Below, piece after piece: positions 2,848 to 61,336 of a stretch of DNA of 64,000 nt. The notes beneath the pieces were generated by a model. It was not told the DNA's origin and did not search any database. It worked only from the letters and a program-made list of their open reading frames with translations. A program made the translations under genes and the position numbers. Source of the stretch: a virus; IMG/VR virus record IMGVR_UViG_3300028786_000006, positions 1-64,000 of that record. One strand, given 5' to 3'. Within the stretch, counting starts at the first letter, position 1. Every line of letters begins with the position of its first letter.

Positions 2848-3282
2848 ATGAAGAATCGCGCAGTTTTAACCGCCGTTGCCAGCCCTACCCCGGAACAGCC
2901 GGGCCGGATTATGTTCCGGGCGACCATCTTGGGGTTCTACCACTACCAGAACGAACTAACCGAAAGTCCACAGCGGATTGCCGGGCGCGAAGAATTCTCA
3001 ACTTCCGACGATGCGTATGGGTGGGCAATCGACCAAGGCGTCCCGCCATTATTGATCGAAAACCGGGTATCCGAATCCCTCGACCTACTGCTCGCCAACG
3101 CCCCTATAGCCGGGCCGCTTACCCTGGCCCCATCGGGCTCTATCCGTGGCGACAACAACCATCTGGTGGGGTTCTATGACCGCAGCACCGGCATGGTGTT
3201 TATCGACGGCCTACCTAACGAGATACGGGCAACCGACGACGCTCATGCGATGGAAATCGTGAAGGCGTACTACAAAGAGTAA
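2848..3282 (+). CDS. hypothetical early protein
   Basis: TAAGGAG SD; own promoter. Confidence 0.75.
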   Translation: MKNRAVLTAVASPTPEQPGRIMFRATILGFYHYQNELTESPQRIAGREEFSTSDDAYGWAIDQGVPPLLIENRVSESLDLLLANAPIAGPLTLAPSGSIRGDNNHLVGFYDRSTGMVFIDGLPNEIRATDDAHAMEIVKAYYKE

Positions 3283-3288
3283 TCTTTT

Positions 3289-3329
3289 TGAACTTGGGGG
3301 TTTACAAGCCCTCAAGTTCAGACTACAAT
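3289..3329 (+). promoter_or_regulatory. early promoter with -35 inside an inverted repeat
   Basis: TTTACA(3301)-17-TACAAT(3324); arms 3289-3301 and 3308-3320. Confidence 0.8.
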
Positions 3330-3365
3330 GTACCGACCAACCAAAGCTCACTAAGGAGCAACACC

Positions 3366-3818
3366 ATGAACACTATCGTATCCCACGCTGCCCCAACCGA
3401 AGCCGGCCAAACGCACCAGGCCTGGTACGTCCACATGGAAGGCAAAAGTGTCTCCCAGTATTTCGAATACATGGACCGCCGCCTCGGTGACCTGGCTCTG
3501 TCCACCCTGCTGTTGACCAAAACCCCGTACAACCCGCAAGCCCTGGAAATTACCGGCCTGGGTTACAGCGACATTACCATCGTGTTCGACGACGAAATCC
3601 ATGCCCGTGCGATGGTTGAAACGCTGGCCCGGATCCTGCCCCCGGCAAGTGCTGCGTGGCAGCACGATGTTGACCAGGTCAACGTTTACGCCATGCTCCA
3701 CGATGAAGTCGCCGAAGACGACGGCCAGGGTAACCTGTTCTGGGTTGCAACCGAACCCGCCAGCGGTGACGACATCATTATCACACCAACCAACCTCGGC
3801 CCGAAAGGTATCCGCTGA
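3366..3818 (+). CDS. hypothetical early protein, paralogue of 14005..14457 and 14501..14887
   Basis: TAAGGAG SD; motif ALEITGLGYSDITIVFDD shared with paralogue. Confidence 0.75.
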   Translation: MNTIVSHAAPTEAGQTHQAWYVHMEGKSVSQYFEYMDRRLGDLALSTLLLTKTPYNPQALEITGLGYSDITIVFDDEIHARAMVETLARILPPASAAWQHDVDQVNVYAMLHDEVAEDDGQGNLFWVATEPASGDDIIITPTNLGPKGIR

Positions 3819-4006
3819 TGTCCCACGAAGAACCCATTTTCGAAGATGGAACCCAATTCACTTTCAGGGGCGCCCGCTTTACCCTGGTTCGCTGGTACGG
3901 ACCTCCAACTGACCTAGAGTCCGTCTACCACTGTACCGACGCCAAGGGTGAGGAATGCACCTTCCTCCCCGAGGACGAGCCAGAGATGCTCCCTCTGCCG
4001 GCCTAA
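3818..4006 (+). CDS. hypothetical protein
   Basis: TGATG coupling to previous gene. Confidence 0.6.
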   Translation: MSHEEPIFEDGTQFTFRGARFTLVRWYGPPTDLESVYHCTDAKGEECTFLPEDEPEMLPLPA

Positions 4007-4020
4007 ACGCCAGGCAAAAG

Positions 4021-4054
4021 AAAACCCCCGAGGCTTGCGCCAAGGGGGTTTTTT
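4021..4054. terminator. bidirectional terminator
   Basis: AAAACCCCCGAGGC-TTGC-GCCAAGGGGGTTTTTT between convergent genes. Confidence 0.8.
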
Positions 4055-4057
4055 CGT

Positions 4058-5983
4058 TCAACCGAAAGTAAACATGCCGCCGGTTGTGCCCTGGTCTGGG
4101 TTGGTGGTGCTAATCTTCGGCGCGCTGACGCTGGTGTTGTTGCTGACGTTGGTGTTGTTGTTCTGTTGAACCACAGCCCCGGCCGCCGATTTGGCCTTCT
4201 CCTCTTCCTTCTTCGCCTTCTCCTCCTTGATATTATCCGCCGTCTTCTCGTATGTCTTCGGGAAGTTGGCCTGGTCTTTCTTGATTTGGAGGTCGGTCTT
4301 CTGCTTGATGATGTTGTTCATCGCGTCTGTACGGGCAAACTCCGGTAACATTTCGACCAACGAACCGATGCCATTGACAAGCAGATCCTGGATGGAGTCC
4401 TTGACGAAGCTGAACATGTCCTCAACCTTCTTCTTGAACCCCAGCTTGACATCGGTCATGAACTCGCCGACGTCGAAGTCGGACACCGCCTGGAACAGAT
4501 CAGAGAACATCTTCTTCTTACCGTCGAAGAACTCGCTAATGAGACCGACGGAGCTAACCCCGAACGAGACGATTTGCTTCACCCCGTTGGTGATGAAGTC
4601 GGCCACCGCGTTGTAGAACCCCGACATGTAGTTGTTGTACAGGGTAGCCAAGCCCTTCTCCACCATCCCAGCGAGGTTGGTGTCGAACCCGAACAACCCG
4701 GCAACCGTGTCGGCGATGCCGGCGATGCCCTTCCATACCCCGATGAAGCCTGACATCACCTTGTCGATGACCGACGGGTTCTCCTTACCCAGGACACTCG
4801 CTGCGTTGCTGAACCCGTCGAAGAAGTCGAACGCGGTCATGATGATGGTGATGATACCAGAGGCCTTGCCAGCCACTTTCAGGAACTTACCGGCCGTCTT
4901 GAATATGCCACCGAACGACTCAAAGATCTTACCGAACCCCTTACCACCCAGGCCTTTCGTGAGGAAACCTGGGACCCATTTCCCGACCATGTTCCCGACG
5001 GCTTCGCCTAGGATGTTCCCGATCATCCCACCGCTCTTACCGCCGTCGCCCTTACCGATTACTTTGGCGTCGTTGGCTGCTGGAAGGAGCTTGAAACGGC
5101 TCTCCTTGGCGTTCTCCAGACCCTGTAGCTTCGCAACCTGGGCATCCTGTTGTGCTTTAGCGGCCAGGCGGTTGGCTACCTTCTGGGCTTCTACACTCTT
5201 CTCCAGCTCGGCCTGTGAACCACCCAGGCGCTCGTAGATCTTGATCAGAACATCGAGCTGTTTCACTTGGGCGCTTTGGCCACCCTTGATGAACTTACCG
5301 TTCTCATCCCGGTCTGCCCCGCCGCCCTTGGAGTCGTTGGCTGGTGTCAGCTTACCTTCTTTCTCGTCCTTCAGCTTTTTCAGCTTCAGAGAGATTGCGT
5401 CTGCTTCCGACTTGACGTTGGCCAGGCGAGCACCGCGTTCGGCGTCGGCCTTGGCCTTGGCTTCCTTCATCATGCGCCCGGCGCTACCCACAACCTTCAA
5501 ACCCAGAGCGATCATCGGGTTGCTGGCGCTTGCCAGACTGACCAGGTTGTCGAGGGTTGGGAGCTTGGCAAGGAACCCGCCGTGCATATCGCCGGCCAGC
5601 TTGGATACCAGCCCAGAGGTTTCGACCGACTGGTTGATCAGCTTGTCGAAGATGTCCTCGAACTCTTTGACATGCGTGCCACCGCTGCCGTTGCTTGCCA
5701 GTTTCAGCTCGGTACGCAGCGACTTCAGATCCTTGAGGTTCTGGCGTTTAGCGACGGCGTTACCCTTGGCCTGGATATCGATGGAACGCATGAGGGTGGC
5801 CTCAATACGCTCGTTCAGTTCCTTGCCCTGGGCGTCACGTTGGGACTTGGCATCGCGCTCGAGGCGAGCAATTACGTTGGTCAGGCCAGAAGCTTCTGGT
5901 TGGATAACCGGGGCGGCCTGGGCTTGCGCCTGTGTCTGAGGCCGCCGAGGGGCCTGACGGGATGGTGGTTTCTGGCTCGCCAT
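4058..5983 (-). CDS. baseplate hub / tail length determinant (gp29-like tape measure)
   Basis: 641 aa helical, Gly-rich middle, Asn-rich C-terminus (VVQQNNNTNVSNN); last gene of the gp48-53-27 operon. Confidence 0.7.
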   Translation of the reverse strand: MASQKPPSRQAPRRPQTQAQAQAAPVIQPEASGLTNVIARLERDAKSQRDAQGKELNERIEATLMRSIDIQAKGNAVAKRQNLKDLKSLRTELKLASNGSGGTHVKEFEDIFDKLINQSVETSGLVSKLAGDMHGGFLAKLPTLDNLVSLASASNPMIALGLKVVGSAGRMMKEAKAKADAERGARLANVKSEADAISLKLKKLKDEKEGKLTPANDSKGGGADRDENGKFIKGGQSAQVKQLDVLIKIYERLGGSQAELEKSVEAQKVANRLAAKAQQDAQVAKLQGLENAKESRFKLLPAANDAKVIGKGDGGKSGGMIGNILGEAVGNMVGKWVPGFLTKGLGGKGFGKIFESFGGIFKTAGKFLKVAGKASGIITIIMTAFDFFDGFSNAASVLGKENPSVIDKVMSGFIGVWKGIAGIADTVAGLFGFDTNLAGMVEKGLATLYNNYMSGFYNAVADFITNGVKQIVSFGVSSVGLISEFFDGKKKMFSDLFQAVSDFDVGEFMTDVKLGFKKKVEDMFSFVKDSIQDLLVNGIGSLVEMLPEFARTDAMNNIIKQKTDLQIKKDQANFPKTYEKTADNIKEEKAKKEEEKAKSAAGAVVQQNNNTNVSNNTSVSAPKISTTNPDQGTTGGMFTFG

Positions 5984-5992
5984 GCGCGTACC

Positions 5993-7189
5993 TTATGACG
6001 TGATTGGTTGAGTACCGAAGCTGTCCTTGGAAAACTCCAGCGACATCTTGTATTGCTGCTTCGAAAAGGTCTGTTTCATCGCACTGACAATCCACGCACC
6101 CGAGAGGAGCTTGTCCTCTTTCAGCTGTTCACCGGCTTGCGGCTCGTGGGATGGGATCTTGAAGTCGATCTTGGAACCGTTGGTCAGCTCATCGTCGCCG
6201 GCTACCACGCAGAGGATCTTGGTGTTCCCAAGGAAGTGGCGACTCGAGTTGCGCTGGAAGACCGACACGTGGCTCATGTCCGGCTTTGTAAACGTGAACC
6301 CTACCTTAGATCGCTTCCCGGCCATGTCATCGAACGGCGTGTGTTTATCGATCTGTACCGCGTTGGGTTTGGCCGGGATGACGGTGGTGGTCTTGCTTCG
6401 AATGTCGAAGGTGACCAGGTCCTGCTCGAACATCCCATTCTGGTTCTGCTTCAGCTTGTCGTTTGACCGGCTGATTTCCATATGCTCGACGTTCAAGAAC
6501 TTCTTGACCATGTCGCGCCGGCCCTTGTCGTCGCGCTGATCGTTCGGTTCCGAGAAATACTCACGGACAGACGGTTGCGCATACAGGTAGGCCAGGGACT
6601 TGAAGTGATACCCGTCGACATCCTCCCAGAAGTAGAAGGGGCTCTGCTCACCGTCGGTTGCCCGGTCGGCCATGAACTTGGCAACCTTCAGGGGGCTCCA
6701 TTGCGGTGAGATAAAGCTCGATGTTCCGACCGAGGGTGAAGCATCGAGCTTCTTGGAAGAGCCCAGTAACGCGGGGATCTTCGAAATCATTTCTGTGTAT
6801 GATCCGGTGAAGGCCTGAGACACGCAGGTGTTGGCGTCGGCGTACTTCTCTGGGGTAACCAGGTGGACCCAATAGGCCAGGGTCTCCCCTTTCACCGGCT
6901 GGCGGTCACCCAGGCTGGATACCTTGAACAACAAGGTGCGATAGGAGCTGCGGCCGGCGGTGCGGTATCGAAGCTCGATCGTCTCTCCGCCCAGGATAGG
7001 CAGGTTCATCGGGAGGTTGTTGGCATCGGTCAACAAGACGCTGGCCGTCATGCTACCACTGCCCAGGGCGGTGTAGATGTTGAGCTCCTGAAACAGAAGC
7101 TTCAGGTCAACAACCGCCCCGCTGTGTGCTGTCAATTTCAACCCACCGAGGTCGTACTCGGTAGGCTGGACCATCTCGTTCGTGCTCAT
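5993..7189 (-). CDS. baseplate hub protein (gp27-like)
   Basis: LPILGGETIEL, FYFWEDVDGYHFKSL, LSGAWIVSAMKQ motifs; synteny. Confidence 0.75.
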   Translation of the reverse strand: MSTNEMVQPTEYDLGGLKLTAHSGAVVDLKLLFQELNIYTALGSGSMTASVLLTDANNLPMNLPILGGETIELRYRTAGRSSYRTLLFKVSSLGDRQPVKGETLAYWVHLVTPEKYADANTCVSQAFTGSYTEMISKIPALLGSSKKLDASPSVGTSSFISPQWSPLKVAKFMADRATDGEQSPFYFWEDVDGYHFKSLAYLYAQPSVREYFSEPNDQRDDKGRRDMVKKFLNVEHMEISRSNDKLKQNQNGMFEQDLVTFDIRSKTTTVIPAKPNAVQIDKHTPFDDMAGKRSKVGFTFTKPDMSHVSVFQRNSSRHFLGNTKILCVVAGDDELTNGSKIDFKIPSHEPQAGEQLKEDKLLSGAWIVSAMKQTFSKQQYKMSLEFSKDSFGTQPITS

Positions 7190-8726: not shown

Positions 8727-9191
8727 ATGGCTCGCAATTATGTACAGGGGTTTTTCGTCCCCTTGAACCCAACCAAGTACAAAGGCGATCGCAATCAGAT
8801 CGTGTTTCGGTCCAGCTGGGAGCGCGCCGCTTTCAACTTCTGTGACACTGAGAAGGCTATCATTAAGTGGGCGTCCGAAGAGGTGATTATCCCCTATAGT
8901 GATCCACTCACCGGCAAGCCCCGGCGGTACTTCACCGACCTGTGGATTCGCACACGGGCGCCTGATGGTACCACGGCAGACTTCATTGTCGAGATTAAGC
9001 CTCAGTCTCAGGTAGACGAACCGGTACGCGGGAAAGGCCCAAAGGCCGAGAAGCGACACCAGGAAGCGGTAGTGGAGTGGCTGACCAACCAGGCGAAATG
9101 GAAGTCGGCGAAGGCGTGGTGTGAGAAGAACGGGATGAAGTTCTTGATATGGACCGAGCACCACATCTTCCCCGGCCGCAAGGTCTGGTGA
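8727..9191 (+). CDS. gp4: head completion protein gp4 (TnsA-like nuclease fold)
   Basis: NPTKYKGD...FRSSWE, WASEE..IPY, VEIKP, NQAKW. Confidence 0.9.
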   Translation: MARNYVQGFFVPLNPTKYKGDRNQIVFRSSWERAAFNFCDTEKAIIKWASEEVIIPYSDPLTGKPRRYFTDLWIRTRAPDGTTADFIVEIKPQSQVDEPVRGKGPKAEKRHQEAVVEWLTNQAKWKSAKAWCEKNGMKFLIWTEHHIFPGRKVW

Positions 9192-9252
9192 TACGTTTGG
9201 GTGGAGGTTGAGACAAGACCTCAGAGGCGGCACTGGAGGAGATCCAGGGACC

Positions 9253-9295
9253 AAAAGAAAGGGGACTCGGCGCAAGCCGAGTCCCCTTTCTGTTT
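9253..9295. terminator. bidirectional terminator
   Basis: GAAAGGGGACTCGGC-GCAA-GCCGAGTCCCCTTTC perfect stem. Confidence 0.85.
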
Positions 9296-9420
9296 GTGTA
9301 AAGTGGCCCCGGTCTGGAAGCCAAACCAACCGGGACCAAACTCTTTCCGTGAGCCGGGCAAGTGTCCGTCTGCCTAGATAATCCCCTTTCCTCTCTCTAG
9401 TACGACCGTTACGGGAATGA
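9253..9420 (-). ncRNA. candidate GGA-loop (RsmY/Z, CsrB-like) sRNA
   Basis: own promoter, no AUG, ACGGA in two hairpin loops, ends at terminator. Confidence 0.5.
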
Positions 9421-9425
9421 ATAGG

Positions 9426-9454
9426 AGTATCGCAGGCATTTGATACAATTGCAA
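9426..9454 (-). promoter_or_regulatory. sigma70 promoter for the candidate sRNA
   Basis: TTGCAA-17-GATACT with TG extended -10. Confidence 0.6.
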
Positions 9455-9471
9455 CCAGCAGATAGTTCGAG

Positions 9472-10200
9472 TTACTTCGACTTGGCGAAAGCCAGGGCGT
9501 CCTTGTACACCTCGTTCCGGCCGGCCTTCTGCCATTGGTCGATGTTCAGAAATAATACCACCTCCCAGACGTTGGCCGGGATCTCAACCAGCTCACTCAT
9601 TACATGGTCGGCCCGGTAGGTTTTCACGCATGGGAGATACAGACCGGTCTGGCTGGCACCCTTGATCAAGTCATACTGCATCCGCAGGCTGGTGCGCGGG
9701 GTGTACTTCTTGGAGGTCTTCAGCTTCAGAAGTTCCAGGAACAGGATGTACCTCAACCGGGGTGGCAGGTAGTGCATGTTCAGGCCGTGAAGCAGCGTCT
9801 TGCCGGCCTTGGACTTGGAAGTGTTGAAGAAGAACGTCACCGGGAATTTATCCCAGTATGGCAGCTTCCCCCCTTCATCGATCGCGTCGTAGTGGTACAG
9901 GTACATGCGCCCAGGTACGATTGCAGACACACCTCTGTGTTTGAACTGCGACGCCTCGAAGAGCTTGTTACGCTGGGCTCGAACGTTAAAGTCCTTTGAC
10001 ACCCGCTTGTAGAACCACTCAGCGCTTTCTCTGGTGTTACGCTGGGCGGTTGCCCCCCGCGCTTCACGGTACTTCCGGATGTAGCGGCGGACGAGGTCTG
10101 GGGTATTTTCAATCTCGCCTTTTGATAGGAGGTCATCCCCTACCACGGCCTTGTCGACCGGAGTACCTTTGGTTTGGACTACAGGTTTTGGAGCAGCCAT
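9472..10200 (-). CDS. gp2: DNA end protector gp2
   Basis: PGRMYLYHYD, LPYWDKFP, GLNMHYLPP. Confidence 0.9.
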   Translation of the reverse strand: MAAPKPVVQTKGTPVDKAVVGDDLLSKGEIENTPDLVRRYIRKYREARGATAQRNTRESAEWFYKRVSKDFNVRAQRNKLFEASQFKHRGVSAIVPGRMYLYHYDAIDEGGKLPYWDKFPVTFFFNTSKSKAGKTLLHGLNMHYLPPRLRYILFLELLKLKTSKKYTPRTSLRMQYDLIKGASQTGLYLPCVKTYRADHVMSELVEIPANVWEVVLFLNIDQWQKAGRNEVYKDALAFAKSK

Positions 10201-28764: not shown

Positions 28765-29109
28765 TTAGACCATGGACTCTTGGGTAACTCGTTCGAAGAA
28801 GAAGCGCGGCTCATCGCCGCCGCGATCAACGATGACGATGTAATGCGGGGTGATTTCGCCCAGACGTGATGGTTCGAAGTCATCGTGGACAGCGTAATAG
28901 CGTGTGACACCCTCGTAGTGGCTGACTTCGACGTGACAAACAATCATGCCGTCGAAGAGACCTTTGAGGAGGTCAATGTTGGATGGTTCGAGGAGTACGT
29001 TGGTGACCGTGAAACAACCGCGTCGCACACCTTCTGCGGTAGCGAGAGGGGAGGTTGCACTGGTGACTTCGAGGTTAAGCTGCTGTACCGACATTCGTTT
29101 GGCTTCCAT
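28765..29109 (-). CDS. hypothetical protein
   Basis: TTGCCG-17-TATAAT promoter upstream; terminator at ~28705-28737. Confidence 0.6.
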   Translation of the reverse strand: MEAKRMSVQQLNLEVTSATSPLATAEGVRRGCFTVTNVLLEPSNIDLLKGLFDGMIVCHVEVSHYEGVTRYYAVHDDFEPSRLGEITPHYIVIVDRGGDEPRFFFERVTQESMV

Positions 29110-29309
29110 GATGAAACATACGGGTGGTGCGGGTTACCCCGCTATCTCCTGATCCCCATTCTCTTATCGGTTTGGGTGACCCGGTAGGACGCCATTATAT
29201 GGCTGGTTTTGTCGCCCGGCAAGTAGATGCGGATAAAGTTTCCTAAGATCCGCCTCAACATTACTTTGAACGACAGGAGCCCTGCAAACGCGAGGGATAA
29301 CGCGAAAAT

Positions 29310-32634: not shown

Positions 32635-33147
32635 ATGGCCGGGTTGCTCGACACAATCACGGGCTTTGTTGGTGGTGGGCTGTTCAAGGAGGTCAAGGAC
32701 ATCGTCCAGGATTATTGGCCACCTGACATTGCACCTGAGAAGAAGCTCGAAATGCAGTTAGCGCTGCAACAAGCTGAAACATCGAAAGAAATTGAGCTTG
32801 GAAAGCTCATGAACGACCAGACGGCGGCCCTCACGCAGCGCATCAGTGATCTGGAAGGTACAGCGGCTGACCTGAAGGGGATTCCCATCCTCGGTCCTAT
32901 CATGCTGTTCATCCGTGGTTCTCAACGCCCGGCTTGGGGCCTGGGTGCCATGTACGCTGACCTGATGTGGTTCAGCGGCCACTGGCAACACCTGACTGAC
33001 CAACAGGAGGCTGCGCTTTACCTGATCAACGCGTTGGTGCTTGGGTTTCTCTTCGGCGAACGTGCTGTCCAAAACGTTGCTCCGCTTCTCGGGGATGTTT
33101 TCACGAAAGCGCGTGGCCCCAAGCCAGTAGATACCAGCAAGAAGTGA
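32635..33147 (+). CDS. holin (3TM/GTA-type family)
   Basis: GGAGG SD; QRPAWG..., VLGFLFGER C-terminal motif. Confidence 0.65.
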   Translation: MAGLLDTITGFVGGGLFKEVKDIVQDYWPPDIAPEKKLEMQLALQQAETSKEIELGKLMNDQTAALTQRISDLEGTAADLKGIPILGPIMLFIRGSQRPAWGLGAMYADLMWFSGHWQHLTDQQEAALYLINALVLGFLFGERAVQNVAPLLGDVFTKARGPKPVDTSKK

Positions 33148-60830: not shown

Positions 60831-61231
60831 ACCCGCGAAGCGGTTGTTTCCAGCACCACAATGGTCGGAGGCCCAGTCTAAATGCCTGTCAGGCTTCCTC
60901 GAATGCCGTCTCAAGGATTTTATGTGACATCTCAAGGGTATGTCGCGCCCATAGTAACAAGGACTCAAGGAGGTGACTATACTCCCTCAATGGGTTTCGC
61001 TGGTCCAACACCTCAAACGCGGTTGCTGTTCCCAAGAACGAGGTCGCGCCAAACCTGGTTCTTGAACCAACAAGTCAAACGCCCCGCTTGCAACCGTCGA
61101 GGAACCGAGTAAACTGCAAATTCCTAGCGAGAACACTGTTAAGCAGCGTCGACCATCTGGTGTAAGGAGTAAGAGCCATGAAGCGTTAATCAGCCTGTCC
61201 CCATCATAACTGCAAACGAGCTATACCCGTG

Positions 61232-61262
61232 AAAAAGCCCTGGCCTTGCGCCGGGGCTTTTT
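61232..61262. terminator. terminator
   Basis: AAAAAGCCCTGGC-CTTGC-GCCGGGGCTTTTT. Confidence 0.75.
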
Positions 61263-61336
61263 CGTTTCCGGTCTTCGAGTTCTCGTGACCATTAAATACC
61301 CCAAACTGGTCTACATCGCCCAGAAAAGGGTATCAC

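Follow-up and report, generated by a model that had tools for sequence, protein, structure and literature searches.

A Candidate Small RNA with RsmA/CsrA-Type Sites and a Putative Antisense Loop between gp2 and gp4 of Soil and Root Phages

The Locus and Its Relatives

The window analyzed here is a stretch of 64,000 nucleotides at the start of a virus record of 162 kb, and the locus of interest lies between the gene of the head completion nuclease gp4 (8727..9191, + strand) and that of the DNA end protector gp2 (9472..10200, - strand). A contig from a root-metagenome DNA run spans this locus with 0 differences. The original prediction placed here, on the - strand, an RsmY/RsmZ-like RNA that would act as a sponge for the host regulator RsmA/CsrA. 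Among cultured phages, only Pseudomonas phage Cygsa01 is a close relative. Its gp2 is 74% identical and its gene order is shared; since this myovirus of P. syringae (PMC11256456) infects Pseudomonas, we infer a Pseudomonas host for the window phage also. The phage group comes from soil and root and is predicted to be virulent.

Homologous gp2 proteins (67-98% mutual identity) gave access to nine further complete copies of the element (L005, L014, L018, L019, L021, L022, L023, L024, and L025), which amount to about six independent lineages, the copy in L013 being partial. Nine related loci, that of Cygsa01 among them, likewise have the promoter, the GGA hairpins, a long stem, and the terminators in the interval from gp2 to gp4. 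Searches of IMG/VR by gp2, by the target protein described below, and by three DNA patterns gave no more homologues, and a second copy was found neither in the window phage genome nor in Cygsa01. In L012, the closest relative by gp2, only the bidirectional terminator lies between gp2 and gp4 and the sRNA is absent, which marks the element as accessory. Taken together, conservation supports a noncoding RNA gene with RsmA/CsrA-type sites, and we regard it as very likely that this is a genuine RNA gene and the representative of an undescribed phage sRNA family.

Some further features of these genomes may be mentioned. No csrA gene was found in the window phage genome. A conserved peptide encoded at the sRNA locus can be ruled out, as there is no AUG in 9420-9253, just as originally claimed, and the homologues differ by indels of 1-2 nt. 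In L024, a 257-aa open reading frame with an HNH-like N-terminal motif (3238-4011) is inserted on the opposite strand between gp2 and the sRNA promoter, and the sRNA cassette has moved intact. The genome behind L006 is rearranged: promoter-driven small genes follow gp2 (3714-6714), and gp4 and the sRNA are absent within 3 kb, yet a homologue of the target gene is encoded there.

The Promoter

A host sigma70-type early promoter occupies 9426..9470 on the - strand. It consists of an upstream TCGAAC (9470-9465), a -35 hexamer TTGCAA (9454-9449), a 17-nt spacer ending in TG-C, and an extended -10 hexamer GATACT (9431-9426), and the hexamers, their spacing, and the TG extension are all as the original prediction gave them. 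The start of the sRNA is predicted at about 9420-9418. With a score of 8/12 this promoter fell below the threshold of a generic promoter scan, which missed it; it nonetheless fits a phage-wide class whose pattern occurs 32 times in the genome, a count for which no null was computed. Its position and spacing are kept in seven complete relatives (L005, L014, L018, L019, L022, L023, and L024) and in the partial L013, and in L025 and L021 an inserted small gene separates the promoter from the sRNA element. There is no GacA box upstream of it in the window, where the best match has 5/12 mismatches. The best match in Cygsa01 has three mismatches but overlaps the -35 hexamer, and the RsmY controls carry the box with 0-1 mismatch at about -76.

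The Long Stem, the Terminators, and the Ends of the RNA

The 11-bp stem at 9304..9338 (- strand) covaries across the related phages and is probably also the intrinsic terminator of the sRNA itself. Double-sided changes affect 7 of its 11 pairs, none of 500 shuffles reaches its score, and slid controls collapse, these being controls that the relatedness of the sequences inflates. Each complete copy has 10-12 consecutive pairs without a mismatch, followed by a U-rich tail. Read on the - strand, the stem contains five G-U pairs and no A-C pairs, which favors that strand as the RNA. The whole RNA folds with z = -4.26 and the long stem alone with z = -3.55, whereas the GGA-bearing 5' 81 nt are not more stable than shuffles (z = +0.93); the folding signal thus comes from the long stem and terminator and not from the GGA region.

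Further downstream, a bidirectional intrinsic terminator (9253..9291, both strands) separates the gp2 side from gp4; it has 16 bp (9291-9256) and a U run that extends to 9253. The perfect GCAA-loop terminator that had been described for the sRNA is therefore present, but GCAA is the + strand reading of its loop, which on the sRNA strand is UUGC. The RNA probably ends naturally at the U tract that follows the long stem, which gives a length of ~120 nt, because the relatives have strong U tails at this point and because in L025 and L021 a further promoter and gene sit between the stem and the second terminator. The U tail there is weak in the window phage, which makes a 165-nt read-through form plausible in this phage. 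The originally proposed RNA of ~165 nt could thus arise by read-through, although an end at ~120 nt is the likelier one.

The GGA Hairpins

Of the string of hairpins originally described, hairpin 2, hairpin 3, and the long stem lie where they had been placed, but hairpin 1 is weak. This 5' hairpin or purine-rich segment (9374..9400, - strand), with one AGGA, is not conserved; it is absent from both the MFE and the centroid structure, G9374 is common to hairpins 1 and 2, and its second GGA is predicted to pair with the 5' end (unpaired probability 0.19). Hairpin 2 (9357..9374, - strand) presents the loop ACGGACAC, the same 8 nt as a GGA site in the host RsmY, with its GGA unpaired at a probability of 0.83, and has equivalents in L019 and L013. 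Hairpin 3 (9339..9355, - strand), with the loop ACGGAAA, is the counterpart of a single ACANGGANGU hairpin in the Cygsa01 group. The window RNA is left with two ANGGA loops and one AGGA, and the presence of two loop sites has P = 0.03 against shuffles.

Six relatives have one hairpin of the form CAC-ANGGAN-GUG (ACANGGANGU), in which variation is confined to the two N positions; this pattern agrees with the consensus from CsrA SELEX and with the hexaloop and NMR signature of RsmE (PMC7652899). A single RsmA site is found in 8 of 10 sequences (L005, L014, L018, L021, L022, L023, L024, and L025), that of L025 and of L021 being a CAGGAUG. Two AGGA hairpins occur in L019 and four GGA elements in the partial L013, and the host RsmY, used as a control, has eight GGA. 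The GGA array is not conserved across the homologues, and no part of the sRNA is less conserved than its GGA region. What most relatives have kept of the GGA loops is one site, with a textbook consensus in six of them, and not a multi-site array, so that the multi-GGA sponge of the original prediction does not correspond to the conserved core of the element. The ACANGGANGU hairpin of the six relatives and the ANGGA loops of the window nevertheless make it likely that the sRNA binds RsmA.

An Invariant Apex and Its Complement at a Distant Gene Start

The best conserved part of the sRNA is one that the original prediction missed. At the apex of the long stem lies a putative antisense element (9315..9326, - strand) whose loop is predicted to be unpaired and whose core, UGGCUUCCA at 9323-9315, is unchanged in 9 of 10 homologues above a stem that covaries. 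The sole change, A>G in L024, would preserve pairing with the target described below through a G-U pair. Over 12 nt the element is the complement of a site in the leader of the gene 29094-28765, one of five further places in the genome where the complement of the apex occurs.

This predicted target gene (28765..29094, - strand, start at 29094) lies ~20 kb from the sRNA and encodes a 109-aa protein of an uncharacterized viral family; its matches were to uncharacterized viral proteins only, with none to Pfam, PHROG, PDB sequences, or folds. An early sigma70-type promoter precedes it at 29194..29222 (- strand), as assigned by sequence pattern. The gene and the sRNA occur together in five genomes, and homologues of the target are also encoded in the genomes behind L025 and L006; for the 161-kb genome behind L014, a word-limited search found none.

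The predicted target site is a 15-mer, AUCAUGGAAGCCAAA, which covers the Shine-Dalgarno sequence (29098..29112, - strand) and is invariant in the window phage, in Cygsa01, and in the L024 and L019 contigs. It is separated from the start codon by 3, 5, 4, and 3 nt in the four genomes and so falls in all three reading frames, which indicates that it is conserved as nucleic acid and not as coding sequence; a mere coding match (MEAK) is thereby ruled out. The 15-mer contains the one GGA that is both Shine-Dalgarno-like and suitably spaced from the target start. It also resembles the RsmA consensus, and this leader is the only one of 184 orthologous start regions with a conserved CANGGANG. The segment 29098-29112 includes an upstream AUG (that of MEAK) without a Shine-Dalgarno sequence of its own; in Cygsa01 the upstream AUG opens a 6-codon open reading frame whose stop overlaps the main start.

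The complementarity between sRNA and target extends over 12, 10, 9, and 11 nt in the four pairs, covering -14 to -3 in the window phage. Among the 184 orthologous start regions, the target is the sole top match, with 10 nt against 7 nt for the next. As 273 of 262,144 9-mers are common to orthologous start regions, the chance of such a match is ~0.001, or ~0.0004 when scaled to four genomes, both values being post hoc in that the match was found after looking. A looser control gave two chance 9-mer matches among other terminator-like hairpins, where ~0.9 were expected. These post hoc values and chance matches lead us to take the evidence for an apex/target interaction as strong but not conclusive. 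A scan with the complete sRNA turned up no further conserved site in the phage, and in three relatives the antisense word is present once more, in the linker.

The apex thus has the properties of a predicted seed: it is conserved, predicted to be accessible, and complementary to a conserved translation-initiation region. Its last CC is predicted to be paired inside the stem, which would leave only 4-8 loop bases free to nucleate. In equilibrium co-folding, which cannot model kissing loops, the apex came to lie on the site only for the window pair; the linker copy did so in one more pair, and in the other two neither did. With both sides invariant, no compensatory change in sRNA and target is seen, and the extension to 12 nt in the window phage is a single observation. 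One other candidate role for the loop, mimicry of a tRNA-Gly anticodon, was rejected: no 7-nt anticodon loop can be closed from these bases, and ARAGORN found nothing.

Other Repeats and Hairpins in the Genome

Several other repeated elements were seen in the course of this analysis. A dispersed 16-25-nt repeat with the core TGCCGTCTC after CCTC lies in the window at 9224-9239 (- strand), between the gp4 stop and the terminator, and also in G000 at 33139, 39312, 50662, 60888, and 119377 and in at least five places in Cygsa01. It occupies this interval in nearly all relatives, including L012, which has no sRNA, and probably serves independently of the sRNA as a binding site on DNA or RNA. A noncoding RNA candidate with CAAGGA motifs at 60854-61263 of the window has ~50 nt of similarity in Cygsa01, part of which is the TGCCGTCTC repeat, and its CAAGGA array is not clearly conserved. 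Many leaders of early genes share the word CACTGAGG/CACTAAGG and a small hairpin over the Shine-Dalgarno sequence, conserved in Cygsa01 (window 2848-3366, 14457, and 47331; G000 137150, 146202, 151843, and 152613); GCUCAC from this word also opens hairpin 3 of the sRNA. Finally, a family of terminators with the loop word GCGCAAGC is present in G000 at 4024, 9286, 11555, 33237, 46438, 49264, 77081, and 82001.

A Possible Mechanism and Its Alternatives

The explanation that we prefer, and to which we would give somewhat better than an even chance, is that the element is a trans-acting antisense sRNA which represses the gene at 29094 and also binds RsmA. Conservation, covariation, complementarity, and the RsmA sequence signature are the computed observations at hand; transcription, pairing, repression, and RsmA binding with its role are what we infer beyond them, along the following lines. 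Host RNA polymerase would transcribe both the sRNA (~120 nt, or 165 nt on read-through) and its target early in infection. The sRNA would have two modules, a 3' antisense stem-loop and a 5' part with one to three RsmA/RsmE sites. The 4-8-nt apex loop would first pair with the bases just 3' of the target GGA; the weak upper stem would then open and the pairing extend across the GGA, blocking 30S entry and hence translation, so that the protein would be made only as a short early pulse. RsmA binding would probably serve to stabilize the sRNA or to bring it to the RsmA-consensus-like target, and multi-site versions such as the window allele may, as a secondary role, also titrate some RsmA. In a more specific version, which we put forward as a tentative possibility, the host RsmA dimer would act as an RNA matchmaker, holding the GGA hairpin of the sRNA on one face and the Shine-Dalgarno GGA of the target on the other; the apex would then take over the site, and the early gene would be shut off in a manner tuned by the state of Gac/Rsm. 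Precedents exist in the CsrA-promoted pairing of SR1 with ahrC (PMC6546359) and in the dual function of McaS and GadY (PMC7652899). The antisense reading has weak points, namely that the word-limited search found no target homologue for L014 and that the apex co-folds onto its site in one of four pairs; it also counts against a combined antisense and RsmA role that titration of RsmA would relieve, and apex pairing impose, repression of the same gene.

Were the element instead mainly a sponge for RsmA/RsmE, the apex match would be incidental or secondary. The strong early promoter class, the RsmY-like size, the 8-nt site common with RsmY, and the perfect SELEX-type hairpin of six relatives would all suit such a function, as would the several sites of some versions (the two ANGGA loops and the AGGA of the window, the two AGGA hairpins of L019, and the four GGA of L013), and in a phage without csrA it would be the host protein that is bound. 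Against this stand the single site in 8 of 10 sequences, where RsmY has eight GGA, and the fact that conservation is lowest precisely in the GGA region; moreover, since the invariant apex contains no GGA, a sponge role leaves it unexplained. Few phage ribosome binding sites look RsmA-repressed, and the original suggestion that titration de-represses those of the AAGGAG type finds no support, as AAGGAG occurs in 7 of 184 start regions and a conserved CANGGANG in only one. We therefore consider a predominant sponge function unlikely. Still more doubtful is a genuine sRNA with a different partner for its apex, be it a host RNA, a protein, or its own GGA loop in an internal kissing switch. The last would gain from a comparison of L024 (4118-4248) with L018 and L023, in which a U>C in the GGA loop and the A>G of the apex would compensate in a loop/apex pairing, but the remaining homologues mismatch at this pair and the case is a single event noted post hoc. 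The C/U-rich linkers of the Cygsa01 group could pair with other ribosome binding sites, yet the phage offers no second conserved target, and five Pseudomonas genomes show no evident mRNA start-site match to the 10-nt complement: all 18 occurrences of this complement that an ATG follows fall inside long open frames, with no evident gene start.

The locus might also produce no stand-alone RNA and consist of tandem terminators and the gp2 3' untranslated region, or of DNA-level sites at which a protein binds the 9-mer in both places. Stem and U tail do score like ordinary terminators, matches to the stem model in five Pseudomonas genomes are generic terminators only, late gp2 transcripts would run into the element, and L012, the closest gp2 relative, lacks it. 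The dedicated promoter conserved just upstream, the loops whose invariance is not normal for terminators, and the G-U pairs on the predicted strand only argue for an RNA instead, and in L012 the downstream terminator alone suffices for gp2/gp4; we consider this explanation highly improbable.

Significance of the Locus

Targets have been assigned to hardly any of the sRNAs of virulent phages. Neither CsrA nor RsmA is mentioned in a review of phage sRNAs published in 2025 (PMC12197685), and in the open-access literature we found no described phage RNA that binds RsmA/CsrA. At the present locus both the sRNA and its predicted target site can be named, and Cygsa01 is a cultured phage that carries them. 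If the proposed mechanism is true, it would link a phage to the Gac/Rsm network and would provide, on the Gram-negative side, a second system in which to test whether proteins of the CsrA family act as RNA matchmakers.

Comparison with Known Regulatory RNAs

Among known regulatory RNAs, the nearest in kind are the dual-function sRNAs McaS and GadY, SR1/ahrC, and the C4 antisense RNA of phages. With RsmY/RsmZ/RsmX (RF00195, RF00166; clan CL00106) and CsrB/CsrC the phage sRNA has in common a length of ~120 nt, GGA loops, an intrinsic terminator, and one 8-nt RsmY site. Unlike these RNAs, which have about 8 sites, it has 1-3, is phage-borne, lacks a GacA box, and carries an invariant non-GGA apex with a predicted mRNA target. 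Rfam, applied at gathering and E-value thresholds, assigned no family to the window copy or that of Cygsa01. The RsmY/RsmZ/RsmX/CsrB models, which the original prediction had proposed as a check, gave no gathering-level match in the window. PrrB_RsmZ scored best, with 15.6 bits against 44, but its match lies on the other strand and owes its score to the terminator; control RsmY loci score 123-127 bits. Arrays of this type have about five or more single-stranded GGA and the window RNA has 2-3 plausible sites; hairpins of the high-affinity ANGGAN type are present, as ACANGGANGU in six relatives and as the two ANGGA loops in the window. From the lack of an Rfam match and of a GacA box and from the single site in most relatives, we conclude that the sRNA is not a member of RsmY/RsmZ, although it may work partly like RsmY.

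The C4 RNA of phages belongs to temperate-phage immunity and to the same operon as its target, and it is not known to have Csr sites. In the part of PMC8198154 that cites Citron and Schuster (1990), the C4 antisense RNA of P1/P7 is a structured phage RNA whose pairing represses genes of the phage itself, and in this it resembles the present sRNA, a phage-encoded structured RNA and predicted repressor of the phage's own gene. It differs in that our predicted target is 20 kb away and the phage group is predicted to be virulent; furthermore, the Rfam C4 models gave no match, and the flanks of the sRNA are gp2 and gp4 and not an icd/ant-type operon. In plasmid copy-control RNAs such as CopA and ctRNA, a strong stem-loop whose upper stem is weak or bulged is both terminator and recognition loop, and these RNAs are cis-encoded with full-length complementarity. 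The phage sRNA is like them in that one strong stem-loop would serve both purposes, but it would pair over 9-12 nt in trans; ctRNA models score on it at sub-threshold levels only.

With McaS and GadY of E. coli (PMC7652899) the likeness is one of kind, with no claim of sequence relation: they combine few CsrA sites with a base-pairing region. They are, however, chromosomal, with at least two GGA sites and host targets, whereas the phage sRNA has a predicted phage target and its seed in the apex of a 3' stem. SR1 and ahrC of Bacillus subtilis (PMC6546359) have CsrA-type sites on both the sRNA and its target, as would the phage pair; that system is chromosomal and shown only in Bacillus, whereas the role of RsmA in the phage sRNA is a putative one, and by analogy it suggests how RsmA could assist the pairing of the phage sRNA with its target.
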